NCBI GenBank assembly: GCA_011364975.1
Contig: RDOE01000045.1
Span: forward strand, 1 to 27,222
DNA from: Promethearchaeota archaeon
GTDB lineage: Archaea > Asgardarchaeota > Lokiarchaeia > Sigyniarchaeales > SOKP01
DNA: 27,222 nucleotides
Reading direction: 5' to 3'
Under the pieces are notes generated by a model that made no database searches, was not told where the DNA came from, and was given only the letters and a program-made list of their open reading frames with translations. Positions 3,692 through 27,032 of this stretch are shown here, piece by piece. The translations under genes were made by a program, and so were the position numbers. The stretch's first letter is position 1, and every line of letters starts with the position of its first letter.

Positions 3692-4372
3692 TTAGAAATA
3701 TTTCCCAAAAAAGTATTCCATTGCTAAATTAGTTGCGTTTCTAATATGTTTATTTACTGCGCTTTCGGTTATTTTAAACTGGTCAGCAATCCTCTTTGCA
3801 CTAATTCTTTTAGGAGAATTAAAATAACCATTTTTAGCTGCAAATTTTACAATCTCTTCTTGTGCTTTAGTAAAATTTGGAAAAGGAATTATTGATTCCC
3901 ATATGTTGCTTTCCGAATTTTTTATTTCATCAATATCATTTATTGCTATAATGGTATAATTCTCAGTTAACCCCGATAATGTTTTAAACAACGTTTTTAC
4001 GTAAGCCGAGTGAGCTATTATATTAATCAATAATACTTCTTTGGAAACATGAATTGGAAAAATAAATGCCCATGGACCTGGATTAACTATTGGAAAAAAT
4101 CCGGTAGGTCTGCTTTGATAGATTACACAAAGAATCTCATTTCCTTTTCGCTCCAACAGTTGGAAGGTTTCAGGTTTAAAGTGCTTATCGATATACTCAA
4201 AAATATTTTTATCTTGAAAATTTTTAAACTTAATTCGTTGTAATGCAAAGAAATGCTCTTGATCATACTGAAATGCATTTAAAATTTCTACGAATTCTAA
4301 TTCTTCAAATAATTCCGCAAATCCAACCTGCTGCAGGAAGTTTCCAGGAATTTGTAGTCGAATTATTTTCAT
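3692..4372 (-). CDS. Archaeal transcription regulator with C-terminal bacterio-opsin-activator-type HTH (HTH_10)
   Basis: C-terminal 'FTKAQEEIVKFAAKNGYFNSPKRISAKRIADQFKITESAVNKHIRNA' fits the LT..Q...A...GYF..PR..HTH pattern; divergent from the SDR gene. Confidence 0.85.
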   Translation of the reverse strand: MKIIRLQIPGNFLQQVGFAELFEELEFVEILNAFQYDQEHFFALQRIKFKNFQDKNIFEYIDKHFKPETFQLLERKGNEILCVIYQSRPTGFFPIVNPGPWAFIFPIHVSKEVLLINIIAHSAYVKTLFKTLSGLTENYTIIAINDIDEIKNSESNIWESIIPFPNFTKAQEEIVKFAAKNGYFNSPKRISAKRIADQFKITESAVNKHIRNATNLAMEYFFGKYF

Positions 4373-4430
4373 GGAACGATCTCAATATTAAATTCTGTAA
4401 TAATGATATTAATATGACCTATTTTTTGAA

Positions 4431-4446
4431 GGTTGCGATCGCAACC
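4431..4446. promoter_or_regulatory. Perfect 16-bp palindrome GGTTGCGATCGCAACC, candidate operator
   Basis: GC-rich perfect inverted repeat in the AT-rich intergenic region between the divergent regulator and SDR genes; TATA-like TTTTATAA at 4471-4478. Confidence 0.6.
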
Positions 4447-4539
4447 AAATAGATCTAATAGTTCTATTAATTTTATAATAATATAACAGGGTTTTGTTAC
4501 TGAATTTTTTTTAATAATTATTATAAGGAGGAAAATTAC

Positions 4540-5712
4540 ATGAATATTTTACTAACTGGTGCTTTTGGAAACGTAGGTTTAAGTACATTAAATGAACTCT
4601 TAAAACTGAATTACAAGATTAGAGTATTTGAGATAAAGAATCGAAAGAATAAGAAAATAGCAAAAACGTATAAGAATAGAGTAGAGATTTTATGGGGTGA
4701 TCTGCGTGATTATAGGTCTGTGAAAAAAGCCATTCAGAATCAGGACATCATTATTCATTTAGGCGCGATTATTCCACCATTAGCAGACTTTAATCCTAAA
4801 CTTGCGGAGCAAGTTAATGTTGGTGGAACAGTTAACATAATTGAGGCTATGAAAAACCAAGAAAAAAAACCAAAAATAGTCTTTACTTCCTCTATTGCTG
4901 TCTATGGGGATCGTCGGGAAAACCCACTAATTAAAATATCTGATCCCCTCAAGCCAAGCAAAGATGATTTTTATGCGCTTACAAAGATTTCTGCAGAAAA
5001 AGCAATTCGAGATTCTGGTCTAGATTTTGTTATCTTTAGATTAAGCTACATTACTTCAGTTGAAAAATTAGATATGGATCCACTCATGTTCCATATGCCA
5101 TTAGATACATCAATAGAAATTTGTGATACAAAAGATGTTGGATATGCTCTTGCTCGCGCTGTTGAAAACAAAGAGATATGGGGGGAAACGTTACATATTG
5201 CTGGTGGAACCAAATGTAGAACAAGTTATAAAGAATATTTAAATAATATGATGGAAATTTTTGGGTTGGGAAAAGACTTTTTTCCCGAAGTTGCCTTTGC
5301 CAAAAATGATTTTCATTGCGGATTCATGGATACAATGCAATCTCAAGAAAAACTCAATTATCAACATCATACTCTTGATGATTACTATAATGAAGTAAGA
5401 AAAAAGGTGGGTAGTAAAAAGTATTTTATGCCTCTCGTTAGATGGATGGTAAAGATTCACCTCTTAAAAAAGTCAGATCCTTACCGCAGGTCTAGATTTT
5501 TCAAGCGAAAGTCGGGAACGTTCTCAGTGTCTGAAAATAAATTTATTAGGCGGATTCTTTCAAACAATTTTAGGCGAATTGAAGCATTAGAAAAAGAATT
5601 AGCGGAAATTCGAGCCTTAATTACAAATTTAGGCTTGAAAAACCTAAATGAATCGATAAATGAGCCCTCATGTGTAGCTGATTCTAAATATTATAGTATT
5701 GATATGAAATAA
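4540..5712 (+). CDS. NAD(P)-dependent epimerase/dehydratase family (extended SDR, 3-beta-HSD-like)
   Basis: TGAFGNVG nucleotide-binding motif, 'HLGAII', 'VNVGGT', 'FTSSIAVYG', catalytic YALTK; SD AGGAGG at 4526-4531. Confidence 0.88.
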   Translation: MNILLTGAFGNVGLSTLNELLKLNYKIRVFEIKNRKNKKIAKTYKNRVEILWGDLRDYRSVKKAIQNQDIIIHLGAIIPPLADFNPKLAEQVNVGGTVNIIEAMKNQEKKPKIVFTSSIAVYGDRRENPLIKISDPLKPSKDDFYALTKISAEKAIRDSGLDFVIFRLSYITSVEKLDMDPLMFHMPLDTSIEICDTKDVGYALARAVENKEIWGETLHIAGGTKCRTSYKEYLNNMMEIFGLGKDFFPEVAFAKNDFHCGFMDTMQSQEKLNYQHHTLDDYYNEVRKKVGSKKYFMPLVRWMVKIHLLKKSDPYRRSRFFKRKSGTFSVSENKFIRRILSNNFRRIEALEKELAEIRALITNLGLKNLNESINEPSCVADSKYYSIDMK

Positions 5713-5894
5713 ATCAATAGTATGTAGGAATTTTATAACACTTTATCTTAGATTTTAATTTGAAAAATGAAATTTTTAATAGAAAAATAATAAAAGTTAG
5801 TTTCAGTTATGATTGATGAAAATTTATGATTTAATTTTATGGGTTTAAACGAGAAATCTTATTTTCTTTATTTCTTTAAACTTAAGATTAAAAT

Positions 5895-7365: not shown

Positions 7366-7748
7366 TTCCTTCAAAACTCATTTTTTTAGATTACTATATA
7401 GACTTGGGTCTATTTAGGCTAATAAATACCTACCCTATTATTTAAATTTTCTTAAAAAGGTTAAAGAATAAACCAACAAGAAAAATGTAGAATTTACTAT
7501 AAATTTTGATAATTAATTATTATGATTGATCACAAAAGCTATTAAAAATGACTAATTACCTCAAAAAAGAAATAAATATAAATATTACAAACAACAAAAG
7601 TTTAATAACTATTAGTAATTGTGAAAAAGATTAATAAATCTTGTATTTACAGTTCAAATCTTAACTGAAATTGATCATAATTACTACGTTTAATGTTTCA
7701 TATTGTCAATATACAAAATTGTAGAAAAGGGGTGAATGTATCAAAAAA

Positions 7749-9692
7749 ATGGAAAATTCTGAAATGCAACGGATTGGATACTACGCTTGTCAATGAGGAA
7801 TTAATATCCGAGGAAAAGTTGATTGTGATAAACTTGTAGAATTTGCCAAAACTAATGATGGGGTTGTTGTAGCAAAAACTCACTCGTTTTTATGAACTGA
7901 AAGTGGTCAAAACGAGATTATTGGAGATATCCGAGAAAAGAATTTGACTCGTATTGTTGCATCGGCTTGAACTCCACGAACCCATGAGCCTATATATAGA
8001 GGGTCGATAGCAAAAACTGAACTTAACCCGTATTATTTTCAAATGGTTAACGTTCGGGAACATTGTTCATGGTGTACGGAAAATAACGAAGAAGCCCTCG
8101 AAAAAGCAAAAGTCTTAGTAAAAGCAGGATTAGATCGCGCAAGAACATTAGAAACGGTTCCAATTAAAACAGTACCAGTAGAAAAAGCATGCTTGGTTGT
8201 AGGTGGTGGAATCGCTGGAATGAATGCTGCTCTTGATTTAGCAAATCAAGGGATAAAGGTTTATCTTGTAGAGCGAAAATCAACCATTGGAGGTAGGATG
8301 GCTCAGTTAGATCGAACCTTTCCTACTGATGATTGTGCAATATGAATCTGTGGGCCTAAAATGTTAGAAGTCAATCGTCATGAGAACATAGAAATTTTAA
8401 GCTATGCAGAAGTTAAAAAGGTTGAAGGATATGTTGGTAATTATAATGTTACCATTGAAATTAAACCTCGATTTGTCGATGTTGAAAAATGTAATGGATG
8501 CGGTGCTTGTAGTGAGGTTTGTCCAATATATTCTGATAACTACTTTGATGAACATCTAGGTCCACGTAAAGCCATAGATATAGCATTCGGTCAAGCAGTT
8601 CCCTTTCTTTATGACGTGAATCGGGAAGTTTGTGTCGAATGTTTTTCTTGTGTTGAAGCTTGTGAATTAGATGCAATAGATTTTAGCCAATTACCCAAAG
8701 AATTAGAACGAAAAGTGGGTACAATAATAATTGCTACGGGCTGGGACATTTATGAACCTTTTGGGGAATATGGCTATGGAGAATATGAAAATGTGATAAC
8801 ACAATCCCAATTAGAGAGAATACTAGCACCTAATGGTCCCCTTGAAGGCCATGTTCATCGTATATCAGATACTAAAAAACCTCAAGAAATTGTATTTATT
8901 CAATGTGTAGGAAGTAGAGAGACTGAAAGGACTTATTGTAGCGGAGTCTGCTGTATGTTAGCCTTAAAAAACGGAAAGTTATTAAAAGAAGAGTTTCCCG
9001 ACGCTAACATTACTATCTGTTATATAGACATTAGAACTAATGAAAAAGGATTTGAAGAATATTATCAGCGTTCTAAAGATTCTGGAATCACCATGATTAG
9101 AGGTAAAGTTGGTGAAATATCCGAAGATAAAGAGACAAAAAATGTTAATATTCGAGTATATTCTTCCTTAACGGATGAAATTATACGAATTAGTGCTGAT
9201 TTAGTTATTCTTTCTTCGGCAGCATTACCTTCTAAAGGGACAGAACAAATTGCTAAAGTATTAAACTTAGATGCGGATACCTACGGTTTTTTAACAGAAT
9301 CACATTTTGGGTTAATGCCACAGGAGACAAAATCTAAGGGGATCTTTATCGCGGGATTCGCACAAGGCCCAAAAGATATTGCCTATTCGGTATCTCAGGC
9401 TAGAGCAGCAGCAAGCAAAGTAGCAGAACTAACTTCTCCTGGTGAAATTGATATTGAACTAATCACTGCAGAAGTAAATCCTGAATTCTGTATTATTTGC
9501 AAACGCTGTGAAAAAGAATGCCCGAAGATGGCAATTAAGGTCATGGATGATAAGGGAGCGGTGGTAGATGAAATAAATTGTGATGGTTGCGGAATATGTG
9601 CCACCTGTTGTCCAACAAAAGCGATAGACATTAGATATTATCGAGATCAGCAACTATTTAGCGAAATTGATGGAATTTTAGAGGGAGGTTAA
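7749..9692 (+). CDS. hdrA: Heterodisulfide reductase subunit A, selenoprotein with 4 Sec (647 aa)
   Basis: One frame from ATG 7749 (MENSEMQRIGYYACQUGINI...) to TAA 9690-9692. In-frame TGA at 7794 (CQUG), 7893 (FLUT), 7968 (SAUTPRTHE) and 8343 (DDCAIUICGP). This joins track ORFs 8043-8345 and 8361-9692. GGGIAG FAD motif, CVGSR/YCSGVCC and ferredoxin motifs present; GGGGTGA at 7729-7735. Confidence 0.93.
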
Positions 9693-9698
9693 ACAAAT

Positions 9699-10154
9699 AT
9701 GAGCTATAAATATGAGATCATTATGTTTGCCTGCTTAAAATGAGGATATAGCGCAGCAGATTTAGCAGGAGTTTCAAGGCTAAAGTATACTCCTTCAGTA
9801 AAAATCATAAAAGTGCGCTGTACTGGGAGAGTTGATGTACAACATATTCTATACGCTATAAAATCTGGAGCGGATGGAGTCATGATTGTGGGATGACGAC
9901 CTAATGAATGTCAATTTAAAAATGGTAATTTCACTGCCCAACGACATGTTGATTTGGCAAATAGAATTTTGGATTCAAGAGGATTCGGAAACCAAAGAAT
10001 TAATATGTACTGGTTAAGTGGTGCTGAAGCAGAAAAATTAGTTAAAAGTGTTGAAGATGCGTATGAAAAAATAAATCGATTGGGACCTAATCCTATTAAA
10101 CTAACGGATATTAAAACTGAAAAAAAGCAAGCAATAATAACACCTGTGGAATGA
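9699..10154 (+). CDS. mvhD: MvhD/VhuD [2Fe-2S] subunit, selenoprotein with 2 Sec (151 aa)
   Basis: ATG 9699 after SD GGAGG (9684-9688): MSYKYEIIMFACLKUGYSAADLAGVSR...VRCTGRVD...GADGVMIVGURPNECQF...WLSGAE. TGA at 9741 and 9894 align with Cys in the mvhD at 17292. Confidence 0.93.
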
Positions 10155-10186
10155 TTCTTACAAAAAAATAGTAGTTGTAAGATGAC
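10151..10186 (+). promoter_or_regulatory. Eukaryote-like SECIS element
   Basis: ATGAT-TCTTACAA-(AAAAATAGTAG)-TTGTAAGA-TGAC: AUGA/GA tandem G.A core, perfect 8-bp upper helix (10156-10163/10175-10182), A-run in the apical loop, directly after two UGA-containing genes. Confidence 0.85.
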
Positions 10187-10269
10187 TACCTATGCGAAGG
10201 AAAGGTGTTTAAAAAAGTAAATTAATTCCAAATGGAATTCATCATTAATATATAAGAATTGGAAAATAT

Positions 10270-11763
10270 ATGGTTCAAATTGCAAATAATAACCTATTTG
10301 AGGGAATAGCGCCAAAAGAGTTAATGGATGCAACCTATAGGGCATCCGAAAATTTTCAAGTGAGAGCTTTTTTTGAAGCTAAAGATGATATTATAAAAGC
10401 AGGAAAATATTCCGAAAATGAATTTTACGAAATTTTGGATGCATTAATTGATGCTGAAACCGAACGTAAACTCGTATCAGATTTATTAAAAGGTAAAAAA
10501 CCATTATTTTTATATGAAATTGTTGAACATCTTAAAAATTTTCCAGCAAAAAATGTCGTACGAGATATTATCTATCTAAAAGAGCAAGGTTACATTAAAG
10601 AACTCATAGAAGTTAAGACCAAAATGGTTATTAAGAAAATAAAAGGAGAAGAGAAAGAGGTTGAAGAAAAAGAATACTTCTATAGATATCAAGTGAAAGA
10701 ACTTCTTGATAATGTTATAGAACACTATTTTGAACCGGTTTCAATAGTATTTAATTCAGGGGTATGCTGTCATTGCGGATGGTGCTCTTCAATTTGTCCT
10801 GTAAATGCCATAAACGTATCAGCAGATACTCTTGATGTAGATGACGAAATATGTATGAAATGCGGTTTATGTTATACAGTGTGTCCCCGCTCATTCTCGA
10901 TTGATCAAGCATATAGTACAATTTCAAAATTGAATAAAACCTTAAATTTCTCGGAATCAATGGGTGCCTACATTAATACATATACTGCGACTACAACAAA
11001 AGAGGAGATTAAAAAAGTGCGTCAAGATGGAGGCATTGTAACTTCCATTTTGGAATATCTTCTAACCCACAATATTGTTGATGCTATCATCGCAGTCCAA
11101 CATTCCAAAGACCTTTGGAGACCCGAACCTGTAATAGTAGAAAGCGTAAAAGAATTATATAAAACAGGAGGTACGAAATATGCTAATTCTCCATCTCTCA
11201 CAATTATCGAGAAAGCAAAAAACTTTGAGAGAATTGCTGTTGTAGGAGTTCCTTGTATGATGAAAGCACTCTTCAAAGGGACATTATTTCCAAGTGGTCT
11301 ACCTTTTTTTAAGAATATCAAATATACTATTGGTTTATTTTGCATGGAATCTTTCTCTTATGATAATATTATTCAGTTAACGAAGGATAAATTTTCTCAA
11401 GAAATAACTAACCTAACTAAAATGAATATTGATAGCGGGAAATTTATTATAAACTTAAAAAATGGTGAGGAAATGGCAGTCGAGTTAAAAGAAGTCCAAT
11501 CTTATGCAAGGGATAATTGCCACTACTGCGAAGACCTCACATCAGATTATGCTGACATCTCAGTAGGTTCCATTGGTTCAAAAGCCGGATACTCATCTGT
11601 TATAACACGTTCAATAAATGGAGATGAATTATTCAGTGAGATTATTGAGAGTGGTTTAGTAGAGGTTCAAAATCTTAAGGAAGTTAAACCGGGGCAAGCT
11701 CTTGCTGAAAGAATTGCTGGATCTAAACGAACAAAATGTAAACCTATTGAATTAAGAAAATAA
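10270..11763 (+). CDS. Coenzyme F420 hydrogenase/dehydrogenase beta-subunit family (FrhB/FdhB-like) with N-terminal extension
   Basis: 2x[4Fe-4S] motifs (CCHCGWCSSICP, CMKCGLCYTVCP), 'QDGGIVT', 'GTKY', 'VGVPC', 'IGLFCME', 'CHYCED..SDYADISVGSIGS'. Confidence 0.9.
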   Translation: MVQIANNNLFEGIAPKELMDATYRASENFQVRAFFEAKDDIIKAGKYSENEFYEILDALIDAETERKLVSDLLKGKKPLFLYEIVEHLKNFPAKNVVRDIIYLKEQGYIKELIEVKTKMVIKKIKGEEKEVEEKEYFYRYQVKELLDNVIEHYFEPVSIVFNSGVCCHCGWCSSICPVNAINVSADTLDVDDEICMKCGLCYTVCPRSFSIDQAYSTISKLNKTLNFSESMGAYINTYTATTTKEEIKKVRQDGGIVTSILEYLLTHNIVDAIIAVQHSKDLWRPEPVIVESVKELYKTGGTKYANSPSLTIIEKAKNFERIAVVGVPCMMKALFKGTLFPSGLPFFKNIKYTIGLFCMESFSYDNIIQLTKDKFSQEITNLTKMNIDSGKFIINLKNGEEMAVELKEVQSYARDNCHYCEDLTSDYADISVGSIGSKAGYSSVITRSINGDELFSEIIESGLVEVQNLKEVKPGQALAERIAGSKRTKCKPIELRK

Positions 11764-11786
11764 AAAAATATTTTAAAGTGATTAAT

Positions 11787-12911
11787 ATGACCTCTAAAAC
11801 TTTTCAAGATCTTATTGAAGAAGTTCATAATAAAGGTATTTGTCAGGAGTGCGGTGGATGTGTTAGCTTCTGTAGTTCTGCAGAATATGATGTAATCGGA
11901 TTTAAGGATCCTTATAGTCCCCCGGAATATAAGCATAAAGATAAGTGTCTTGAATGCGGCATTTGTTATTATATTTGTCCACAGACTCATATTCTTGATA
12001 GTGAACTTAATAAAACTTATAAATTTTCTGACTTTGAATCTATGCCTATCGGCCATTACGAGCGTGTTTACTCTTGTCAAGCAAAGGATAAAGAATTTCT
12101 CGAGTATGGAACCGATGGAGGTGTTGTTAATTCGATTATTAATTTCTTAATCGAACAAAAATTAATAGATGGCGCGGTGGTGTCTCAAACTGATGCTCCT
12201 TTTTCAAGAGAAGCGACTTTTGCTGACAGTAAATATGATTTACTTAAAGCTTCAGGTGCAAAACTAGATATATCGCCACAATTGGATGAGATTCAAAAAT
12301 TTTGTACTTATACTCAATCAATTCCAAAATTAAATCATTATAAATTTAAAAAGTTAGCCGTAGTTGGCACCCCCTGCCAAATATACACTATTAGGTGTAT
12401 GCAGGATTTGGGGGTTACTCCCTCAGAAAATATAGAAATATGTTTAGGTTTGTTTTGTTATGAAAACTTCTTTTTTCAAAAATTCCAAGTTGAAAAGTTT
12501 GAAAAAGATTTTAATATAAAGTTTGCAGATATCGAAAAAATTAATATTAAAGAAGATTTAATCTTTAAACTTAAGAATGGGGGCTCAGGAGCTAAAGTTG
12601 TCCATGTTCCCTTTAATTATTTAAACGATTATATGAGACCCGCATGTAATGCATGTAGTGATTTTACAAATATATATGCGGATATATCATTTGGGGGATT
12701 AGGTTCTCAAGATAAATATACTACAGTTATACCCCGAACAAAAATGGGTAAACATATCCTTCAGAGAGTAATAGATGCTGGTATCATTAAATGTTCAGAT
12801 ATAGATTCTAATAAAATGAATAAGACAATTGAAAAATTAGCAAATTTTTCTCATTCAAAAGTGAAACGAAGAGAAACATTTATGAAGAAATTAGAGTTAG
12901 GAGGAGTATAA
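11787..12911 (+). CDS. Second FrhB/FdhB-family F420-interacting subunit
   Basis: CQECGGCVSFC, CLECGICYYICP, 'TDGGVV', 'VGTPCQ', 'LGLFCYE', 'CNACSDF...ADISFGGLGS'; start is ATG 11787 or GTG 11778. Confidence 0.9.
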   Translation: MTSKTFQDLIEEVHNKGICQECGGCVSFCSSAEYDVIGFKDPYSPPEYKHKDKCLECGICYYICPQTHILDSELNKTYKFSDFESMPIGHYERVYSCQAKDKEFLEYGTDGGVVNSIINFLIEQKLIDGAVVSQTDAPFSREATFADSKYDLLKASGAKLDISPQLDEIQKFCTYTQSIPKLNHYKFKKLAVVGTPCQIYTIRCMQDLGVTPSENIEICLGLFCYENFFFQKFQVEKFEKDFNIKFADIEKINIKEDLIFKLKNGGSGAKVVHVPFNYLNDYMRPACNACSDFTNIYADISFGGLGSQDKYTTVIPRTKMGKHILQRVIDAGIIKCSDIDSNKMNKTIEKLANFSHSKVKRRETFMKKLELGGV

Positions 12912-12912
12912 A

Positions 12913-14166
12913 ATAACTGAATCCAAAAAAGATATTGAAAGAAGGAAATTTTTTGGAGATACTTTAGATGCCTTAAAAAAGATTTATACCCCTGAGCTGA
13001 AAGAGCTCCTTAAAAGGTGTTATCAATGTGGGCGTTGTAGTGGTGTGTGTCAATTAAGTAAAGTTCAGAAATATACTCCTAGTAAAATTATTCAACTTAT
13101 TTTGGAAGGTTTTGAAGATAAAGTACTTCAAAGTGGAGCATTATGGGATTGCTTAACATGCAATCAATGCTTAAAAGACTGCCCTGAAAACATAAATTTC
13201 GCAGATATCGTAAGAATGGCACGATATCAAATGAGACATAATAAGAATCAAAATCCCGAGGAATACATTGCCCATAAAGGAATTTATACTACCCTCTCCG
13301 AAATGATGAGTAGGCCTTATATAATTCCTGATAGAAATATGGATTGGATTCCTAAAGGATGTAATGTTGCTGATGCGGGTAATATTTTGTATTATGTTGG
13401 GTGCTTACCCTTTTATAATTATGAATTTAATGATTTAGATACGATCGCTACAAGTACCTTAAAATTACTATGTAACGTAGAAAAAGACCCTATTGTAGTC
13501 CTTAAGGATGAAATTTGTTGTGGGCATGATATTTACTGGGGTCAAGGAAAATTAAAAACGTTTATTAAATTAGCGAAAAAGAATAAAGAAATGTTTGAAG
13601 CTAAAGGTATTTCTACTATTATAACCGCCTGTGCGGAATGTTATAGAACCTTAAAAATTGATTACCCGAATCTTTTTGAAGATTTTAAAGATAAATTTAC
13701 GGTAAAGCACTTAATCGAATATGTTTATGAAAATTGGAAAATGGGAAAAATTGAATTTAAAGAACCCAAAAAGAAAAAAGATATAATTACCTTCACTTAT
13801 CAAGATCCTTGTAGATTAAGTAGGTTTCTACCAAAAAATATTAATATTACTGCACAAATAAGAGAAATATTTAGAGAATTGGAAAAATTTGGCTACAAAT
13901 TTGAAGAAATGAAACATAATAAAGAAAATTCATTATGTTGTGGCATAAATTCATGGATGAATTGTAATGAAAAATCTAAAGCCCTGCGATACAAAAGAAT
14001 GCTCGAAGCTAAATCAGCTGGAGAGCTGTTATTAACTTCATGTCCTAAATGTAATATTCACCTTACATGTATTCAGAGCGATTTTGAAAATATCGCTTCA
14101 ATAAAAATTATAGATATTTCTGAATTCTTACTTGAACATATTAAAGTAATACAAAATGAAACTTAG
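12913..14166 (+). CDS. HdrD-like Fe-S oxidoreductase (HdrC-type ferredoxin + two CCG domains), non-canonical start
   Basis: CYQCGRCSGVC (from 13018) and CLTCNQCLKDCP; CCG domains 'YVGC..EICCG..TACAEC' and 'YQDPC..LCCG..TSCPKC'. The track start (GTG 13045) falls inside the first cluster motif; the frame is open back to ATA 12913, which follows a GGAGGAG SD. Confidence 0.85.
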   Translation: MTESKKDIERRKFFGDTLDALKKIYTPELKELLKRCYQCGRCSGVCQLSKVQKYTPSKIIQLILEGFEDKVLQSGALWDCLTCNQCLKDCPENINFADIVRMARYQMRHNKNQNPEEYIAHKGIYTTLSEMMSRPYIIPDRNMDWIPKGCNVADAGNILYYVGCLPFYNYEFNDLDTIATSTLKLLCNVEKDPIVVLKDEICCGHDIYWGQGKLKTFIKLAKKNKEMFEAKGISTIITACAECYRTLKIDYPNLFEDFKDKFTVKHLIEYVYENWKMGKIEFKEPKKKKDIITFTYQDPCRLSRFLPKNINITAQIREIFRELEKFGYKFEEMKHNKENSLCCGINSWMNCNEKSKALRYKRMLEAKSAGELLLTSCPKCNIHLTCIQSDFENIASIKIIDISEFLLEHIKVIQNET

Positions 14167-14183: not shown

Positions 14184-17100
14184 ATGGAAGGTTCTGTTCT
14201 AGTAATTGGTGGTGGAATAGCAGGAATCCAAACCTCTTTAGATCTTACTGAATTAGGATTTAAAGTATACTTAGTGGAAAAATCGCCATCAATTGGAGGC
14301 AGAATGGCTCAACTAGATAAAACCTTTCCTACAAATGATTGTTCTCTCTGCATTCTAGCACCCAAAATGGTAGAGGTGTTTAGAAATCCTAATATTGAAC
14401 TGATGACATACCATGAAGTCACAGAAGTATCCGGTAAAGCAGGTGATTTCAAAGTAAAGGTTCTTAAAAAACCGCGTTATATAGATGAATCAAAATGTAA
14501 AGGATGTGGAGATTGTGCTTCAAAATGTCCTAAAATTGAAGTACCTAACCTCTTTGATATGAATCTTGGGAAAAGAAAGTCAGCATACATTCCATTTCCT
14601 CAAGCGGTCCCTCCGGTTTACTTAATCGATCCGGAATTATGCTTAAAGATAAATAAGGGAGTATGTGGTGTCTGTGCGAAGGTATGTCAAGCAGAAGCGA
14701 TAGAATTTGAGCAAAAACCTCAGGAGAAACAAACGAATGTTGGTGCAATCGTTGTAGCTACGGGCTTTGATATGCCCGCTGAAAACTTGTCTTCCCGTTG
14801 GGGATATAATTACCCTAATGTAGTAAGTGCTCTTGAATACGAGCGAATATTATGTGCCTCTGGGCCTTTTGGGGGGCATGTTTTAAGACCAAGTGATCAT
14901 ACTGAACCTGAAAGAATCGCATTTGTACAATGTGCTGGATCAAGAGATTTACACGAAGGAATTCCTTATTGCTCTAGTGTTTGTTGCATGTATACTGCTA
15001 AAGAAGCGATAATAACTAAAGAACATTCTGACAAATCTCAATGTTATGTTTTTCGTCACGATATTAGAGCCTATGGTAAAAACTTTTATGAGTTCACCCA
15101 ACGGGCTCAAAAAGAATATGGAGTAAAATATTTCCAAACAAAAATTAGCAAGATAGAAGAGGAACCTGAGACTAAGGATTTAATTATTCATTATGAAAAT
15201 TTAAAGAATGGAGAATTTAACAATTTCCGCGCAAATTTAGTTGTATTAGCAACACCCTTAGTTCCTTCTAATGGCACTCAGGAACTTGCCAAAATTTTAA
15301 AAATTGATTTAGATGAATATAACTTTTTTAAGGAGAAAGATTATTTTCATAAATCAAAGTCTTCAAAAGAGGGTATTTATTTAAGTGGATTTTGTCAAGG
15401 TCCAATGGACATTCCTGAAACGGTTGCAGATGCGAGTGGAGTAGCTGGACAAGTAGCTGCTTTTTTAAATTCGGTAAAATTTGAAAAGACGCAAGAAAAG
15501 GAGTTATTGATCCCTGAATTAGAGATTAAAGCGAGTGATGAGCCTAGAATTGGAGTTTTAATATGCCATTGTGGAATTAATATTGGAAAGTATGTTCATG
15601 TGCCTTTGCTAGCAGAATATGTACGCCAACTGCCTAATGTTGTTCATTGTGAGGATAACTTATATTCCTGTAGTTCTGACTCGCAAGCGCGGATTAAAGA
15701 ACTTATAATCAATCACAAATTAAATCGATTTATTGTAGCTTCTTGTACTCCGAGAACTCATGAAGCTCTCTTTCAAGAAACATGTCAAGAAGCAGGCTTA
15801 AATAAATATTTATTTGAAATGGTAAATATTCGTGACCAATGTTCTTGGGTTCACATGGATGATGCTGAAGCTGCAACCCAAAAAGCAAAGGATCTAATAC
15901 GAATGGCAGTTGCAAAATCAAGACTTTTAAAACCTCTTAAAGAAGAGTCATTAAAAATCACACCTACTGCTCTTATTATCGGTGGTGGGATTGCCGGAAT
16001 GAGTGCAGCATTGAATATTGGCGATCAAGGATTTAAAACCTATATTGTAGAAAAAGAACAAATCCTCGGTGGAAATTTGAATCATCTAAATGTTCTCTAT
16101 CCGATTGAGCAAGATGCTTCTGAATTCATTAAGCAAATAATAAAGTCAGTTGAACAACACAAACAAATCCAAGTGTTCTTAAATGCTAAGATTAAAGATA
16201 TAAAAGGATATGTAGGAAATTATATTGTCACAATTGTTGATTCTAAAAATAAACCTCAAGATTTAAGTATAGGAACGATAATTGTAGCAACAGGCGGCAA
16301 AGAATACAAACCAAAAGGATTATTTCGATATGAAGCTGAAAATGAAAATGTTATTACCCAATTAGAACTGGAACAGATTTTAAAGGAGAAAGGATCGTTA
16401 TGGCTGGAAACGATTAATCGAATAACAATAATTTTATGTGTGAATGCTAGACAAGTTGAGGGGATAACTTATTGTTCAAATACCTGTTGTGGTAATTCTA
16501 TTAAGAATGTAGGGCTTCTAAAAAAGTTAAAACCAGACTTGGAAATTCTTGTTCTTTATAGAGACCTTCAGATGGCTAAAAAGAAATACGAAGAATATTA
16601 TCGTAAGCGCCGGAAAGATGCTATATTTTTGAGATATGACTTAGACAATCTTCCTGTTGTTAAAAAAGTAAATAAAAAGCCAGAAAAATATAATATAAAA
16701 TTTTTTGATATCAACCTTCAAGACTTCTTAGAATTTGACACTGATGCGATTATATTATCAACACCTATTGTTCCAGAAGACAACTTAGATGATATAGCAA
16801 AAATGTTAAAGGTCCCCTTAGATAGAAATGGCTTCTTTTTAGAAGCTCATGTAAAATTAAGACCATTGGATTTTGCAACAGAGGGAATATTTTTATGCGG
16901 TTGTGCACAATGGCCAAAAAATATACAAGATTCCATTTCACAAGCGCATGGGGCGGCTGCGAGAGCAAGCAGGTTTTTAAGTGCAGAAGAAATTAAAACT
17001 TCAGGGATTGTTGCGGAAGTTAATCCTGTGAATTGTATTGGTTGCGGAAAATGTGAATCGGTATGTCCCTATAATGCGATAGATATTTTAGAATCAATTA

Positions 17101-17270
17101 AAGAGTTTGAAGATATAACATTAATCGCCAAAAAATCGTTCATTAATTCAGCCCTCTGCAAGGGTTGTGGTACCTGTGCCGCAACCTGTCCAAATGGAGC
17201 AATATCTATAAAACAATACGATTTTGATCAAATATCTGCTATGATCGAGTCATATTTATTAGAAACTTAA
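14184..17270 (+). CDS. hdrA: HdrA-family protein, double FAD-module form, Cys-only (1028 aa)
   Basis: Two GGGIAG motifs, DKTFPTNDCSLC, CAGSR/YCSSVCC, a central 'RIGVLICHCG..YSC..ASCTPRTHE..RDQCSWVH' domain and a C-terminal 2x[4Fe-4S] domain. Confidence 0.92.
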   Translation: MEGSVLVIGGGIAGIQTSLDLTELGFKVYLVEKSPSIGGRMAQLDKTFPTNDCSLCILAPKMVEVFRNPNIELMTYHEVTEVSGKAGDFKVKVLKKPRYIDESKCKGCGDCASKCPKIEVPNLFDMNLGKRKSAYIPFPQAVPPVYLIDPELCLKINKGVCGVCAKVCQAEAIEFEQKPQEKQTNVGAIVVATGFDMPAENLSSRWGYNYPNVVSALEYERILCASGPFGGHVLRPSDHTEPERIAFVQCAGSRDLHEGIPYCSSVCCMYTAKEAIITKEHSDKSQCYVFRHDIRAYGKNFYEFTQRAQKEYGVKYFQTKISKIEEEPETKDLIIHYENLKNGEFNNFRANLVVLATPLVPSNGTQELAKILKIDLDEYNFFKEKDYFHKSKSSKEGIYLSGFCQGPMDIPETVADASGVAGQVAAFLNSVKFEKTQEKELLIPELEIKASDEPRIGVLICHCGINIGKYVHVPLLAEYVRQLPNVVHCEDNLYSCSSDSQARIKELIINHKLNRFIVASCTPRTHEALFQETCQEAGLNKYLFEMVNIRDQCSWVHMDDAEAATQKAKDLIRMAVAKSRLLKPLKEESLKITPTALIIGGGIAGMSAALNIGDQGFKTYIVEKEQILGGNLNHLNVLYPIEQDASEFIKQIIKSVEQHKQIQVFLNAKIKDIKGYVGNYIVTIVDSKNKPQDLSIGTIIVATGGKEYKPKGLFRYEAENENVITQLELEQILKEKGSLWLETINRITIILCVNARQVEGITYCSNTCCGNSIKNVGLLKKLKPDLEILVLYRDLQMAKKKYEEYYRKRRKDAIFLRYDLDNLPVVKKVNKKPEKYNIKFFDINLQDFLEFDTDAIILSTPIVPEDNLDDIAKMLKVPLDRNGFFLEAHVKLRPLDFATEGIFLCGCAQWPKNIQDSISQAHGAAARASRFLSAEEIKTSGIVAEVNPVNCIGCGKCESVCPYNAIDILESIKEFEDITLIAKKSFINSALCKGCGTCAATCPNGAISIKQYDFDQISAMIESYLLET

Positions 17271-17291: not shown

Positions 17292-17729
17292 ATGCCAAAA
17301 GCAAAAGTAAAAGAAAAGTACCCGGACTTTAATCCAGAGATTTTAGTATTTTGCTGTAATTGGTGCTCTTATGCAGGAGCAGATCTTGCGGGAGTATCTC
17401 GATTTCAATACCCCCCTAATATGCGAATTGTTAGAGTAATGTGTTCGGGGAGAGTAGATCCATCTTTTGTGATAAAAGCTCTTAAAGAGGGTGCTGATGG
17501 AGTTTTAATTACAGGATGTCATATAGGAGATTGCCATTATATCTCTGGTAATGAGTTTGCGAGAGAAAGGTTTGAACGGCTACATAATATTATTATAAAA
17601 CAACTTGGAATCGATGAAAAACGAGTGCGATTAGAATGGGTAAGCGCATCAGAGGGAAAACGATTCGCAGACTTAATAACAGAATTTACCAACCAAATTA
17701 GCGAATTAGGCCCTTTAAAAGTTCTTTAA
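17292..17729 (+). CDS. mvhD: MvhD/FlpD [2Fe-2S] subunit, Cys form
   Basis: Canonical FCCNWCSYAGADLAG, VMCSGRVD, GCHIGDCHY and WVSASEG. Confidence 0.95.
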   Translation: MPKAKVKEKYPDFNPEILVFCCNWCSYAGADLAGVSRFQYPPNMRIVRVMCSGRVDPSFVIKALKEGADGVLITGCHIGDCHYISGNEFARERFERLHNIIIKQLGIDEKRVRLEWVSASEGKRFADLITEFTNQISELGPLKVL

Positions 17730-17838: not shown

Positions 17839-18846
17839 ATGAAAATTTTAGATGATGAAAAATTTATCAGAAATGTGGAAAACTTAATTGATCCAAAGGA
17901 AGTTAGCCATTTGTATTTCTTCCAAACGTTCAAACGGTTTTTACCTCGCTCCCTTTTTAAAAAGCTATTAATTAAGACTTCAAAAAAGACTCCATACATG
18001 GGTTTTGTAATTGAACCTTATTGTCTGTTTTTATTTTTTAAGCTCAAAAATATCGAAAAAGCAATATCATTATTGCCGGAACGTTTTAAGTTGAAAAAGA
18101 GTAGAATTTTTGCTGATGAAGAACCAGAACACTATTTGGGAATGGGGGTTTTCAATACCCGAGCAAGTACTTTTTGGGGTTCTAGGCTAGAATCATATCT
18201 CGTTGCGGAAGATAAAGAAACCGGTCTTATCTCCTGGATTTTTATCGATATTCTGAGCAATACAATAATTGCTCTCCCTTCAGTAGGAGTTGCAGATAGA
18301 AACAGTAAAAATGCCATATATACAACTAGCTCAAAGGGAGATCTACTATTGGATTTTAAAGAAGACAAAACTGACCGACAGATAATCTTAACGGGTAATA
18401 TTACCAATGGAAAAATGCGCAAACTTGATCAACCCCTTTGGGTAATGGGAAATTCATCTATCGGTCACAGTAAAAAATTCTCAGATAATAAAAATGATGA
18501 TACGCTTGCCGTAATATTTGATCCTGCTGAGGTTGAGAAGGCTCTAGAAATTCCTATTGAGGATATTCACATAAAGTATAATACACTTTTCCCAGATTTA
18601 GCAGAGCCCGAGCTATGCAAGGCGTTATGTTTCCCCTTCGCTCAGCACTATATTGCCGACAGTCCAGGCTGTCGCACCTATATCAAAGATATTAATGACA
18701 TGATCGAGAATTATAACAAGATTGCAGATATGAAAGAAATTAAAACCTTTTCAACAAGAAATATAAAGATAATGTTATTAATGGGAATCTCTTTATTTAT
18801 GGTAATTTTTATTTCACTAGTTATTTTATTGATAATTAATCTATGA
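17839..18846 (+). CDS. Hypothetical protein, possible acetoacetate-decarboxylase-like fold, C-terminal TM anchor
   Basis: 335 aa; 'AISLLPERFKL' resembles the ADC-like N-terminal pattern; hydrophobic C-terminus; paralog of the next gene. Confidence 0.65.
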   Translation: MKILDDEKFIRNVENLIDPKEVSHLYFFQTFKRFLPRSLFKKLLIKTSKKTPYMGFVIEPYCLFLFFKLKNIEKAISLLPERFKLKKSRIFADEEPEHYLGMGVFNTRASTFWGSRLESYLVAEDKETGLISWIFIDILSNTIIALPSVGVADRNSKNAIYTTSSKGDLLLDFKEDKTDRQIILTGNITNGKMRKLDQPLWVMGNSSIGHSKKFSDNKNDDTLAVIFDPAEVEKALEIPIEDIHIKYNTLFPDLAEPELCKALCFPFAQHYIADSPGCRTYIKDINDMIENYNKIADMKEIKTFSTRNIKIMLLMGISLFMVIFISLVILLIINL

Positions 18847-18881: not shown

Positions 18882-19886
18882 ATGAACCAAGAAGAAAACA
18901 GGAATTTTGTAAAAAAAATAGAATCTCTTGTAAAGCCTCAAGATGTAACTGCCATCAGCTTTTTAAGCAGTTTCAGTAAATCTCTTCCTAAAAAGACACA
19001 ACATAAATTTACACAGAGCGGGAAGAAAAGAATTCCTTACATGGGATTCATAGTAGAGCCCTATGGTTTATTTGTGTCATTTAAGATAACGAACGCTTCA
19101 GCAGCCCAAGAGATGCTACCCGATGGATACGAATTAGCAGAGACCTCTTTCTTTAAGAACGAAGCAAAGTTTCCCATGGTAATTGCAAGCGTATTTACCG
19201 CTCGAACATCAGGATTTATTGGTATGCGAGCCGAATTTTATATTATTGCTCACAATAAAGAAACCGGGCTGTTATCTTGGATCATTTGTGATTATGAAAC
19301 AAATACTAACAGCTATGATCCAAAGAATGGATTTTGTGGATATACTTGCGATCCAGCCGTGTATACAACCACATATTCTGGGGAGTTACTGGTTGATATT
19401 AAGAATCGCAGTAACAATAAAGAATTCATTCTATCTGTTGACTTAGAAAAAGGTGATTCAAGGGAATTAGACGAATCCCTCTGGATTGAAGGAAATTTTT
19501 GTGTCGACTATGGCGGCGAGTTAAAAAGTGATTTTTCAGAGCCTTTCAGCCTAATTTTTGACCCAAATATGCTAAAAGAAGCTATAAGTATACCTTTAGA
19601 ATATATTTCAATCAAGGCTAACTCCTATCTGAATAATATTATTGATCCTGTTAAGCCAGTAAACGCAATTACCATTCCTTATAATCAGCACTTCATTATC
19701 AGGCAAGACCTGCAAAAACATGCGGTTAAAAATCAAAAGGACTTAGATCTTCAAATAAAGTCTTTCCTTAGCAGAACTGGATTTAAAACCATGTCAGGTG
19801 ATGATATAAAAAAACCTATTTATGGAATGGTCTTAATTTCTTACATAGTACTTATCAGTATAATTGTATTATTACTAATTTTCTAA
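18882..19886 (+). CDS. Hypothetical protein, tandem paralog of 17839-18846, C-terminal TM anchor
   Basis: Shares PYMGF..EPY.LF, F..R.S.F.G.R.E.Y, KETGL.SWI, LW..GN, IFDP and P..QH with the upstream gene. Confidence 0.65.
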   Translation: MNQEENRNFVKKIESLVKPQDVTAISFLSSFSKSLPKKTQHKFTQSGKKRIPYMGFIVEPYGLFVSFKITNASAAQEMLPDGYELAETSFFKNEAKFPMVIASVFTARTSGFIGMRAEFYIIAHNKETGLLSWIICDYETNTNSYDPKNGFCGYTCDPAVYTTTYSGELLVDIKNRSNNKEFILSVDLEKGDSRELDESLWIEGNFCVDYGGELKSDFSEPFSLIFDPNMLKEAISIPLEYISIKANSYLNNIIDPVKPVNAITIPYNQHFIIRQDLQKHAVKNQKDLDLQIKSFLSRTGFKTMSGDDIKKPIYGMVLISYIVLISIIVLLLIF

Positions 19887-24281: not shown

Positions 24282-27032
24282 ATGGAAGCTTCAGTTTTAA
24301 TTATTGGTGGAGGCATTGCGGGAATTCAAAGCTCTTTAGACTTAACAGAACTAGGTTTTAAAGTATACTTAGTTGAGAAGGAGCCTTCTATAGGGGGTCA
24401 TATGGCTCAACTTGATAAATTGTTCCCCTCTAATGATTGTAGTTTGTGTGTTCTAGCCCCAAGAATGGTAGCGGTTTATAAAAATCCTAATATTCAGTTA
24501 TTCACATTATCTGAAGTTGAGGACATAACGGGTGAGTCGGGCAACTTCGAAGTTGTTATTCTTAAAAGACCACGTTATATTGATGAGTCTAAGTGTAAGG
24601 GTTGCGGTGATTGTGCTGCAAAATGCCCGAAAATAGAGGCACCCAATCCTTTTGATATGAATCTAGGAAAAAGAAAATCAATATACATGCCGTTCCCTCA
24701 AGCAACTCCTCCAGTGTATTTAATAGATCCTGAATTATGTTTATATTTAAATAGAGGCGTGTGTGGTGTCTGTCAGAAGGTCTGTAAAGGTGAAGCAATC
24801 GATTTTGAACAAAAAGAAGAAAAATTAAAACTTAAAGTAGGCGCTATAGTGGTTGCAACTGGTTTTGATATGCTAGCCGCAGAATTATCAGAAAAATGGG
24901 GTTATGGGTATAAAAACGTTCTAAATGGCTTAGAATACGAGCGATTATTGTGTCCTACAGGACCCTTTGGAGGAAATATATTAAGACCTAGCGATGAGGA
25001 AGTACCTCAAAAAATAGCTTTCATTCAGTGTGCTGATTCGGAATATGAAAAGAAACACCTCTCTTATTGTTCTCGAGTTTGTTGCATGTATACAGCTAAG
25101 AATGCTATCCTTACTAAACAATATTCAAATGATATTGAAGTATCAGTATTTAGGCATAATATTAGAGTTTTTGGGAAGAATTTTTACGAATACACTAAAC
25201 AAGCACAAGAAGAATATGGTATAGCATATCATCACGCAGATATCAAGATGATTAAAGAAAATTCTAGTACAAACAATTTGATAATTCAATATAACGATTT
25301 AAAAACTGGGGAAGATAAGGAATATGAAGCAAATATGGTAGTTTTAGCGGCACCCCTAGTGTCCTCAAAAGGAACAGATAAATTAGCCAAGTTATTAAAA
25401 ATCGAATTAGATAAATACCAATTTTTCCAATCTAAATCTTATTTTGACAAATCACTTACTTCTAGAGAGGGAGTGTTTTTGTGCGGTTTTAGCCAAGGCC
25501 CTATGAATATTGCTGAAACAGTTAGCCATGCGAGTGGAGTAGCTGGGCAAGTAGCTATTATGTTGAATGATGTGAGGTATAAAGGCTATGCCGAGAGAGA
25601 AGTTGGACTATTGTCAGAAGAAGAAATAATTAAGATCACACCAAGAGCGTTAATTATAGGGGGTGGAATATCAGGAATGACAGCTACGCTTGACATTGCT
25701 TCTCAAGGATTCGAAACAATTTTAATTGAACGAGACAATAAATTAGGAGGTAATTTGAATCATATTAATATCCTTTCTCCTACTGGAATGAACGCTAGTG
25801 AGTTCTTAACTTCAATAATAAAAAGAATAAGGGATAATAAAAACATTAAAACTCATTTAAATTCTCAAATTATTAAAGTGGAAGGTTCAATAGGCAATTA
25901 CAGAGTTAAATTCATACAAAAAGATAACCGAATTCACGAAGAAATTGTTGGAGTTATAATTGTTGCCACCGGAAGTCAAGAATTCAAACCTTTTGGACAA
26001 TTTCAATATATAGACAAAAACTCTAATGTTATTACACTTTTAGAATTAGAGAAAAAATTAAAAGAAGAAGGAGACTCTTGGCTTAAGCGGATACGCCATA
26101 TTACCATTATTTTATGCGTTAAATCAAGACAAAAAGATGGTTTTTCTTATTGTTCAAATGTATGCTGTAATAATGCCATAAAAAACATTAAAATCCTAAA
26201 AGAATTAAATCCTAAAATTGAAGTTTTAGTTCTATTTAGGGACATTCACCAAGCTAAAAAAGAATTTGAAGAAATTTTTAGCCAGAAGGACGATCTCGCT
26301 AAATTTTTGCGATATGATTTAGAAAACATCCCTGAAATTGTTAAAATAGATGAGAATATCGAGAGATACAAGATCCGTTTAAAGGACGATCTAGATCGAC
26401 ACAAGGAATTAGTATTTAGCACCGATCTAATCGTCTTATCTGCCCCTATGGTTCCTCCAGAAGGTATACAACAGTTATCTGAGATCCTTAATGTCCCAGT
26501 AGATCCGAATGGGTTTTTTATAGAAGCTCATAATAAACTACGACCCTTGGAGTTTTCAGATCAAGGAATATTCATATGCGGAAGTGCTCAGTGGCCAAAA
26601 AATATACAAGATTCAATATCTCAAGCAAATGGTGCAGCGGGACGAGCCAGTAGATTTCTAAATGTAAAAAGAATTTCAGCTACTAAACTGAAATTCCTTT
26701 CCTTTTTATTATCAATTCAATGCTACTTTAAGGATATGCTTGTGAATGAAGATAAATGTAATGGTTGTGGTCAGTGCGTTGATTTATGCCAATTTAAAGC
26801 GATCACTCTTTTAGAAGTAAAACAAAATTACGAAGATGTAAGTGTAATCACAAAAAAAGCTCATATAAATCCTGCGATTTGCAAGGGTTGCGGAAAATGC
26901 TCCAGCAATTGTCGACTTAAGGCAATAAACGCAAGACATTACGACTTTAAACAGATTTCATCTATTATAGACCCTTATTTCCTTGAAAAAACAAAAAGCA
27001 AGGAAGAAGAAAAAGCATTACTAATAAGCTAA
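24282..27032 (+). CDS. hdrA: HdrA-like double-module paralog lacking the central Cys-rich domain (916 aa)
   Basis: Colinear with 14184-17270 (MEASVLIIGGGIAG, CKGCGDCAAKCP, YCSRVCC, second GGGISG, QWPKNIQDSISQA) but has no CHCG..CTPRTHE domain. Confidence 0.85.
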   Translation: MEASVLIIGGGIAGIQSSLDLTELGFKVYLVEKEPSIGGHMAQLDKLFPSNDCSLCVLAPRMVAVYKNPNIQLFTLSEVEDITGESGNFEVVILKRPRYIDESKCKGCGDCAAKCPKIEAPNPFDMNLGKRKSIYMPFPQATPPVYLIDPELCLYLNRGVCGVCQKVCKGEAIDFEQKEEKLKLKVGAIVVATGFDMLAAELSEKWGYGYKNVLNGLEYERLLCPTGPFGGNILRPSDEEVPQKIAFIQCADSEYEKKHLSYCSRVCCMYTAKNAILTKQYSNDIEVSVFRHNIRVFGKNFYEYTKQAQEEYGIAYHHADIKMIKENSSTNNLIIQYNDLKTGEDKEYEANMVVLAAPLVSSKGTDKLAKLLKIELDKYQFFQSKSYFDKSLTSREGVFLCGFSQGPMNIAETVSHASGVAGQVAIMLNDVRYKGYAEREVGLLSEEEIIKITPRALIIGGGISGMTATLDIASQGFETILIERDNKLGGNLNHINILSPTGMNASEFLTSIIKRIRDNKNIKTHLNSQIIKVEGSIGNYRVKFIQKDNRIHEEIVGVIIVATGSQEFKPFGQFQYIDKNSNVITLLELEKKLKEEGDSWLKRIRHITIILCVKSRQKDGFSYCSNVCCNNAIKNIKILKELNPKIEVLVLFRDIHQAKKEFEEIFSQKDDLAKFLRYDLENIPEIVKIDENIERYKIRLKDDLDRHKELVFSTDLIVLSAPMVPPEGIQQLSEILNVPVDPNGFFIEAHNKLRPLEFSDQGIFICGSAQWPKNIQDSISQANGAAGRASRFLNVKRISATKLKFLSFLLSIQCYFKDMLVNEDKCNGCGQCVDLCQFKAITLLEVKQNYEDVSVITKKAHINPAICKGCGKCSSNCRLKAINARHYDFKQISSIIDPYFLEKTKSKEEEKALLIS

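Follow-up and report, generated by a model that had tools for sequence, protein, structure and literature searches.

How are four in-frame TGA codons read in a gene of an Asgard archaeon that otherwise looks intact? The question is raised by positions 7749-9692 (forward strand) of contig RDOE01000045.1 from a Promethearchaeota archaeon (assembly GCA_011364975.1; the 27,222-nucleotide (nt) stretch analyzed here is referred to below as the window). The frame at these positions encodes a homologue of heterodisulfide reductase subunit A (HdrA), and an original prediction, made from the DNA letters alone, proposed that its TGA codons are read as selenocysteine (Sec, U). We conclude, with a probability of about 0.93, that hdrA and the gene directly downstream, vhuD, form a two-gene selenoprotein unit of this Asgard archaeon (Promethearchaeota, formerly Lokiarchaeota). 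The original account thus stands with respect to recoding in hdrA; it stopped at the end of hdrA and overlooked both vhuD and the selenocysteine insertion sequence (SECIS) element that the two genes appear to share.

The hdrA frame is intact except for four TGA codons

When TGA is translated as U, the 7749-9692 frame comprises 647 codons, ends with a TAA stop at 9690-9692, and contains neither a frameshift nor an internal TAA or TAG. The four TGA codons are found where they had been predicted: at positions 16 (7794-7796, in a CxUG motif), 49 (7893-7895), 74 (7968-7970, in the sequence AUTPRTHE) and 199 (8343-8345). The last is the canonical Sec site of HdrA, in the DDCxxU motif. In alignment with the solved HdrA 5odc_A, the four codons are located opposite Cys13, Cys46, Cys71 and Cys197, respectively. 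U199 is also opposite X197 of 9sfi_A and Cys205 of the M. marburgensis chain 8rvu_a/9sw2, in which Cys202 corresponds to C196. In 5odc numbering, the FAD-proximal CxxC pair matched by C196 and U199 is Cys194/Cys197. The X at position 197 of 9sfi_A agrees with the earlier statement that methanococcal HdrA carries Sec in its DCxxU motif.

The window contains a paralog at 14184-17270, and it had been claimed that all four TGA codons align with its cysteines. BLASTP reproduced this correspondence: Cys was found opposite U16 (CHCG), U49 (YSCS) and U74 (ASCTPRTHE) in the second half of the paralog and opposite U199 (DCSLCI) in its first half.

As anticipated, ordinary open reading frame (ORF) calling with translation table 11 splits the gene. 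It yields two ORFs, 8043-8345 (100 amino acids, aa) and 8361-9692 (443 aa), and public protein collections hold both fragments as separate entries, the 100-aa one under the label “heterodisulfide reductase subunit A”. As a source of the TGA codons, sequencing error can be excluded: 80 other assemblies speak against it, and so does a DNA contig obtained independently in a public run, which spans positions 7722-8500, is identical at all four TGA codons and differs from the window only at position 7988 (G>A, synonymous).

The TGA sites are conserved and alternate with Cys codons only

The ortholog set consisted of the window and 80 other loci with 76-84% identity, all from Asgard metagenome-assembled genomes labelled Promethearchaeota or bearing other Asgard names. 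The 80 loci include 22 (L005-L026) that come one each from genomes of the same genus (79-84% identity, 3-5 TGA each), so the two sets are not independent. HdrA matches were present in 40 of the 41 genomes searched (the source genome, G000, and 40 relatives).

Conservation of UGA or Cys in relatives had been suggested as a check, and the codons at positions 16, 49, 74 and 199 of the orthologs were found to be TGA, TGT or TGC only. Position 16 is Sec in all 78 orthologs that have a residue there, position 199 in all 81, and position 74 in 79 of 80, the lone Cys belonging to a badly aligned fragment (L083). Position 49 is Sec in 51 orthologs and Cys in 28 (n = 79). Over the four sites, the pattern UUUU occurs in 51 loci and UCUU in 27, the remaining three sequences being partial. 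On a FastTree tree of 77 orthologs, whose support was not assessed, position 49 has alternated between Sec and Cys at least ten times, whereas Sec is retained at positions 16, 74 and 199. Since the same TGA sites recur at 76-84% identity, the pattern is more than chance.

We also compared the mean ratio of nonsynonymous to synonymous differences (pN/pS) between the window and the 80 orthologs. Codons 1-199 gave 0.179 and codons 200-647 gave 0.149; synonymous sites were close to saturated (pS about 0.75). Because the ratio is alike up- and downstream, the stretch that precedes the 443-aa ORF is coding; relaxed selection, named beforehand as the sign of a pseudogene, was not seen.

A second, presumably recoded gene, vhuD, ends inside the putative SECIS element

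Six nucleotides after the hdrA stop, on the same strand, begins a gene of the MvhD/FlpD family, vhuD (9699-10154, 151 codons). It contains two in-frame UGA codons, at position 15 (9741-9743), opposite Cys16 of M. marburgensis MvhD (9sw2_D), and at position 66 (9894-9896), opposite Cys67 of the same chain; MvhD His68 and Asp71 are opposite R67 and E70 of VhuD. The product matches the solved methanococcal VhuD 9sfi_K with an E-value of 1e-38, and 9sfi_K has X at both Sec positions. The match to the NF045873 VhuD model, 163.5 bits, is under the cut-off of 215. VhuD was recovered in 74 of the 81 loci. Sec15 is U in each of these 74, and Sec66 is U in all 65 in which its motif was found, the regular expression having failed in the other nine.

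At the end of vhuD, at 10145-10193 of the forward strand, lies a hairpin of the Loki SECIS type, recognized by its sequence, its minimum free energy (MFE) fold, a covariance model and covariation. Its core hairpin (10151-10185) is composed of AUGA (10151-10154), the 5′ stem strand UCUUACAA, the 11-nt loop AAAAAUAGUAG (10164-10174), the 3′ stem strand UUGUAAGA and GA (10184-10185). Nucleotides 10156-10163 pair with 10175-10182 to form 8 base pairs (bp), and U10155 faces U10183. The AUGA is located downstream of every recoded codon, at distances of 2357, 2258, 2183 and 1808 nt from the hdrA UGAs and of 410 and 257 nt from those of vhuD.

A regular expression detected this element in 64 of the 81 loci, 435-487 nt past the hdrA stop. 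A covariance model, R1, was built from these 64 sequences. R1 found the element in the remaining 12 loci with enough downstream DNA, which brings the count to 76 of 76; the other five loci end too early. All 12 had been missed by the GA-containing expression; in the two that were inspected, L062 (3897-3945) and L108 (3771-3819), the SECIS core has AA in place of the 3′ GA. In the window, R1 scored 62.2 bits at 10145-10193, the only match with E ≤ 0.01. The second-best match had 14.9 bits (E 0.56), so the window has one SECIS. In the alignment of the 64 sequences, seven of nine stem pairs change on both sides. The hairpin is a predicted element that would work like a SECIS and that lies outside the curated Rfam families.

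The stop codon of vhuD, UGA at 10152-10154, sits inside the AUGA of the SECIS core. The same arrangement, in which the stop is the SECIS's own UGA, is seen in 44 of 62 loci (window included); 12 of the 62 have TAG, placed 4 nt upstream, and six have TAA. The single terminating UGA of the unit would therefore itself be part of the signal that recodes the six others. For hdrA, 64 of 77 loci use TAA as the stop codon and the other 13 use TAG; TGA occurs in none.

Sec machinery is encoded in the same genome

A search of the genome for Sec machinery had been proposed as a further check, and matches to tRNA-Sec, SepSecS, PSTK, archaeal SelB and SelD were all obtained. SepSecS scored 460.5 bits against a cut-off of 224.85. 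A tRNA-Sec gene with the anticodon UCA is located 82 nt upstream of SepSecS (L001 1500-1619, minus strand of L001, which is G000:C106:34341-34460). It contains a 30-nt insertion in the D arm (L001 1573-1602). Removal of the insertion in silico leaves a cloverleaf of 90 nt in the canonical 9/4 archaeal form: the acceptor stem has 9 bp, the D stem 7 bp with a loop of 4 nt, and the T stem 4 bp, and the variable arm is long. About 4 kb away, on the same contig, lies the gene of a 487-aa GTPase of the SelB/EFSec type. It carries the Pfam domain aSelB_III and, among solved structures, matches archaeal SelB 4ac9_A best (E 1.3e-87). SelD, with one in-frame TGA, scored 188.3 bits. Judged by these matches, the genome is predicted to possess Sec machinery of the archaeal/eukaryal type.

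Other loci of the genome also combine in-frame TGA codons with SECIS-like hairpins. A second hdrA (two TGA), together with vhuD (two TGA) and a SECIS, occupies G000:C149:47138-49614 (SECIS in L134), and a third hdrA fragment (one TGA) with vhuD (two TGA) and a SECIS reaches a contig end at G000:C69 (around 3793-5783, minus strand). At G000:C169, near 64336 on the plus strand, a good lokiSECIS with the loop ACAAAUACUAG is located 23 nt past a 158-codon read-through frame with two adjacent UGA codons (..VGCUUEKV..). The SECIS at G000:C154:20442-20490 (L133) follows a small frame ending in ..GDGTUGCASIF.. by 6 nt. These loci do not amount to a selenoproteome census: a genome-wide scan with the regular expression gave 33 matches, mostly noise (the window is 32% G+C), and a genome-wide scan with the covariance model scored 150 of 9909 candidates.

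Proposed mechanism and alternative explanations

In the mechanism that we propose, the four UGA codons of hdrA and the two of vhuD would all be read as Sec by Sec-tRNA(Sec), brought to the ribosome by archaeal SelB/EFSec. One eukaryote-like kink-turn SECIS (10145-10193), at the 3′ end of a presumably bicistronic mRNA, would direct all six events; the recoded codons lie upstream of it at distances of 257 to 2357 nt. Translation would terminate at the seventh UGA, the vhuD stop within the SECIS core. The hdrA stop is TAA and therefore cannot be recoded.

Two other explanations dispense with Sec. If hdrA were a decayed gene, its first 199 codons would be pseudogenised and a functional product of 443 aa would start at ATG 8361; this is indeed the ORF that table-11 calling yields, and it exists as a protein in public collections. 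Decay is, however, contradicted by the pN/pS values of the two parts of the gene, by the retention of the four TGA codons in orthologs, where they are swapped only for Cys codons, and by what lies upstream of 8361, namely the GGGIAG motif for flavin adenine dinucleotide (FAD) binding (residues 151-156) and the whole N-terminal iron-sulfur (Fe-S) domain, which align with solved HdrA without gaps. We give this explanation practically no chance. A genome-wide code change, with TGA as a sense codon for Trp, Gly or Cys, is suggested by the fact that read-through keeps the frames open, but TGA remains a normal stop in five of the 19 long table-11 ORFs of the window, including those with ends at 18846 and 21517, and each of the five has its next stop 2-9 codons further on. 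The 19 ORFs contain 70 TGG and no in-frame TGA, in line with the initial observation that TGA still terminates elsewhere and Trp is TGG. In hdrA and vhuD, conversely, TGA is confined to columns aligned with Cys, and a dedicated tRNA-Sec, SelB and SECIS are present. A changed code can hardly be entertained.

A third possibility accepts recoding and questions the amino acid: some UGA codons, chiefly the one at position 49, or the whole set when selenium is short, might receive Cys instead of Sec. The repeated exchange of TGA with TGT or TGC at position 49 indicates that Cys is tolerated there. Against this stands the persistence of TGA at positions 16, 74 and 199 in nearly every ortholog. The cost of recoding could be shed by a single-base change to TGT or TGC, so persistent TGA disfavours an equal function of Cys. 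Cys insertion is the only alternative that we retain, and we regard it as improbable, with a slim chance for it at best. Site-specific recoding of UGA to Sec, as originally proposed, is supported jointly by the columns that hold only Sec or Cys, by purifying selection, by the SECIS and by the full set of Sec machinery genes.

Several points weigh against Sec recoding by a shared SECIS. Three components of the machinery scored under their thresholds: tRNA-Sec had 40.3 bits with the Rfam tRNA-Sec model (gathering score 47) and was missed by ARAGORN, the PSTK-like protein had 166.3 bits (cut-off 290.5), and the bacterial-type selB model gave 234.5 bits (cut-off 242.25). These matches are sub-threshold yet clear best hits, and the low tRNA-Sec score is probably due to the 30-nt insertion in the D arm. 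As for the SECIS, the hairpin is present in the MFE fold, but the fold of the region is unexceptional (z -1.53). No SECIS family of Rfam 15 was matched: the window gave no matches at E up to 1, and the 171-nt segment 10100-10270 gave, at E up to 10, nine weak matches (noise such as small nucleolar RNA and CRISPR-DR), none of them to a SECIS family. In the 64-sequence alignment, 94.4% of the stem cells are paired, compared to 39-56% with the partner strand slid, and none of 500 shuffles reached the observed values; the paired percentage is biased, the sequences having been chosen by an expression that demands pairing, but how many kinds of pair occur at fixed orthologous columns does not suffer from this bias. 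Contigs from RNA libraries cover only 8702-8936, 9474-9740 and 9753-9979, which is no proof of transcription or of a single transcript. A 3′ SECIS whose action would have to reach a UGA 45 nt into a 2.4-kb message also fits awkwardly with coupled transcription and translation. Finally, we infer from sequence the insertion of Sec itself, as well as the single transcript, the action of the SECIS over 2.4 kb and from one cistron to another, and what each Sec does chemically.

Identity of the product as HdrA

The read-through protein is colinear with solved HdrA structures and places U on Cys columns, which is the outcome of the homolog alignment called for at the outset. Residues 8-645 match residues 5-651 of 9sfi_A (E 6.7e-205); 5odc_A follows with E 6.9e-195, and 8rvu_a and 7bkb_A are further matches. 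Pfam domains FAD_oxidored, NAD_binding_8 and Pyr_redox_2 are found at residues 145-200, where the GxGxxG motif is visible as VVGGGIAG. Both the inserted and the C-terminal 2x[4Fe-4S] ferredoxin domains with CxxCxxCxxxC motifs are present (Fer4 at 243-307, Fer4_21 at 574-627), and across the 81 orthologs there is little or no variation at their cysteines, 248/251/254/258, 295/298/301/305, 581/584/587/591 and 611/614/617/621. By these matches, the predicted product of 7749-9692 is the FAD- and Fe-S-containing electron-bifurcating subunit HdrA.

Five orthologs have Sec inside a ferredoxin CxxCxxCxxxC motif, at position 298 (L125), 301 (L069, L115) or 614 (L075, L127). In L125, L069, L115 and L075 this Sec brings the total to five, and in L127 to four. 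Because of these five relatives, Sec appears able to replace undisputed cubane ligands in HdrA.

The curated NCBIfam cut-offs for HdrA were not reached. The best model, HdrA2 (NF040770), gave 771 bits against a cut-off of 1100, and the HdrA models gave 591 bits against 1300 and 1400. The models comprise 762-777 positions, including a C-terminal MvhD-like part that is a separate gene here: hdrA covers positions 1-641 of NF040770 and vhuD positions 649-774. The cut-offs are missed because the models include this separately encoded part, so the shortfall reflects architecture, not family.

Structural reading of the Sec sites

In the cited structural papers, HdrA's N-terminal domain is a mobile arm with a [4Fe-4S] “shuttle cluster”, HA3. 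According to Chadwick et al. 2022, HA3 is bound by Cys of the N-terminal domain and by Cys197 contributed by the other HdrA. Within this domain, the five solved HdrA have just four Cys in common, those at positions 14, 16, 49 and 74, and not C26, C106 or C109; the same four are also the sole conserved Cys/Sec positions of the domain across the 81 orthologs. Three of them (16, 49 and 74) are Sec in the product of 7749-9692. Whether HA3 is held by three or by all four of these positions, two or more of the N-terminal Sec, and probably all three, would be among its ligands. The mobile shuttle cluster is thus probably held largely by selenium, an assignment of HA3 ligands that rests on Chadwick et al. 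2022 and on the conservation argument, not on coordinates.

For the residue equivalent to 199, the structural papers describe either a trans ligand of HA3 or part of a relay that links HA3, or the MvhD [2Fe-2S] cluster, with FAD. A Nature 2026 paper (PMC13518236) places a Cys-Sec197 feature between A3 and FAD, and a Science Advances 2026 paper reports an unknown ligand on Cys202/Cys205. VhuD Sec15 is opposite the third “additional” Cys of the FAD relay, MvhD Cys16. At least HdrA U199 and VhuD U15 would accordingly be situated, by alignment, at the Cys/Sec junction next to FAD. We lean, with reservations, toward the wider view that all six Sec may gather at the docking junction that bifurcated electrons pass on their way out of the flavin, with HA3 as a natural, largely Se-ligated cubane; in that case the extra Sec would be holders of one cofactor junction and not scattered catalytic cysteines.

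A relationship between HdrA's N-terminal domain and VhuD was not detected. BLASTP of HdrA residues 5-135 against VhuD gave E 12, and these residues had no Pfam FlpD match at E up to 10. Comparison of the two by hhalign was non-significant (probabilities of 1.65% and 4.0%; score 20.2 vs 14.8 for the reversed control); the non-significant alignment is colinear and places HdrA C14/U16/U49/U74 on VhuD C12/U15/C41/U66. In the ESM Atlas, the N-terminal domain of the Cys paralog matched only clusters of HdrA N-terminal domains.

Neighbouring genes

Directly after the SECIS, at 10270-12911, are two genes of the F420-binding beta-subunit family (FrhB/FdhB-like), of which the first carries an additional ferredoxin domain. 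Their position hints that they may provide the electron donor or acceptor of the Sec HdrA unit. The partner with which HdrA acts on CoM-S-S-CoB is the CCG-domain subunit HdrB/HdrC; here a protein with a CCG domain and Fer4 (13045-14166) adjoins the Cys-type fused HdrA paralog rather than the Sec hdrA. This paralog (14184-17270) and another HdrA-type gene at 24282-27032 are double-length fusions without Sec; they have the complementary pattern described for fused HdrA by Chadwick et al. 2022, here in the reverse order. The 14184-17270 fusion is followed by a Cys-type MvhD gene at 17292-17729. Two ORFs farther downstream, 17839-18846 (335 aa) and 18882-19886 (334 aa), had no Pfam or NCBIfam match.

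Comparison with known selenoprotein systems

Multi-Sec HdrA-VhuD units with a shared SECIS are a known kind, described in 2016. Mariotti et al. 2016 (PMC4989117) report that HdrA of Loki carries as many as four Sec, for which there are five possible positions, and has a tandem VhuD with two Sec. One lokiSECIS is shared by up to six UGA over about 2 kb. Its core is AUGA/GA, its stem has 9 bp and its A-rich loop 11 nt, and it occurs once per HdrA-VhuD pair, downstream of VhuD. The hdrA stop is reported there as always UAA or UAG. The earlier statement that multi-Sec selenoproteins occur in Lokiarchaeota was therefore correct, and for the same reason the three extra N-terminal Sec, which the original prediction had singled out as unusual, are not new.

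The unit in the window resembles these Loki pairs: its UGA codons, the canonical one near 200 among them, occupy conserved Cys columns, and vhuD follows on the same strand after a short spacer; the likeness is one of Sec count and canonical site. It differs in details. The vhuD stop of the window is the UGA of the SECIS AUGA, which Mariotti et al. report for VhuU.1; the SECIS stem has 8 standard pairs and a U-U, compared to 9 bp; and the tRNA-Sec insertion is 30 nt long and located in the D arm, whereas the Loki gene of that study has a 31-nt intron in the T loop. SBP2 was not found in Loki by Mariotti et al., and no search for it was made here.

A later survey (ISME J 2024, PMC11227280) lists 227 Sec-using Asgard genomes and 1439 selenoprotein sequences. 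As in the window, hdrA and frhD/vhuD are reported there as always neighbours with one eukaryote-like SECIS in common, and the AUGA..AA core noted in some Lokiarchaeia hdrA/frhD is the variant that we see in L062 and L108.

The HdrA and VhuD of Methanococcales (9sfi_A, 9sfi_K) are alike in belonging to the same full-length family, in the Sec at the FAD-proximal CxxU and in the VhuD Sec positions. In contrast, the three N-terminal sites at which Sec is predicted here are Cys in methanococcal HdrA, and the methanococcal SECIS is of the archaeal type with one element per gene (PMC4989117), while the window has one for two genes. Methanosarcina-type HdrA2 (NF040770) is a single fused polypeptide, whereas two genes are found here. 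With eukaryotic SECIS elements and the multi-Sec SelP, the unit shares the kink-turn AUGA/GA core, the A-rich apical loop, the position in the 3′ untranslated region and the presence of several UGA at a distance. Unlike the eukaryotic elements, the window SECIS has a shorter stem, would serve two cistrons and has no match to an Rfam SECIS family.

Significance

As a gene find, the unit adds little, its kind having been in print since 2016 and catalogued across Asgard metagenome-assembled genomes since 2024. It matters for annotation: a 2025 paper notes that Sec causes gene callers to truncate hdrA, and with hdrA stored as two fragments, pipelines undercount and truncate a central enzyme of Asgard energy metabolism. 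The hdrA-vhuD unit is also a clean test case for recoding, in which one 3′ SECIS would recode a UGA 2.4 kb upstream in another cistron.

The fresh angle lies solely in the structural reading of the Sec sites, which has alignment, conservation and cited statements as its basis, not coordinates. Our literature search found no open paper that maps the extra Asgard Sec sites onto an HdrA structure. A Se-ligated HA3, if true, would reverse the 2016 statement, made before structures were available, that the Sec sites are not cluster ligands. Two 2026 cryo-electron microscopy papers (one being PMC13518236) treat the role of the FAD-adjacent Cys/Sec pair of HdrA and of MvhD Cys16 as an open question. 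Asgard HdrA would put selenium on that FAD-adjacent pair, on the corresponding VhuD residue and on all but one of the shuttle cluster's four candidate ligands. It may thus offer a natural heavy-atom, redox-tuned variant of the enzyme for Se extended X-ray absorption fine structure, anomalous scattering or electron paramagnetic resonance studies.

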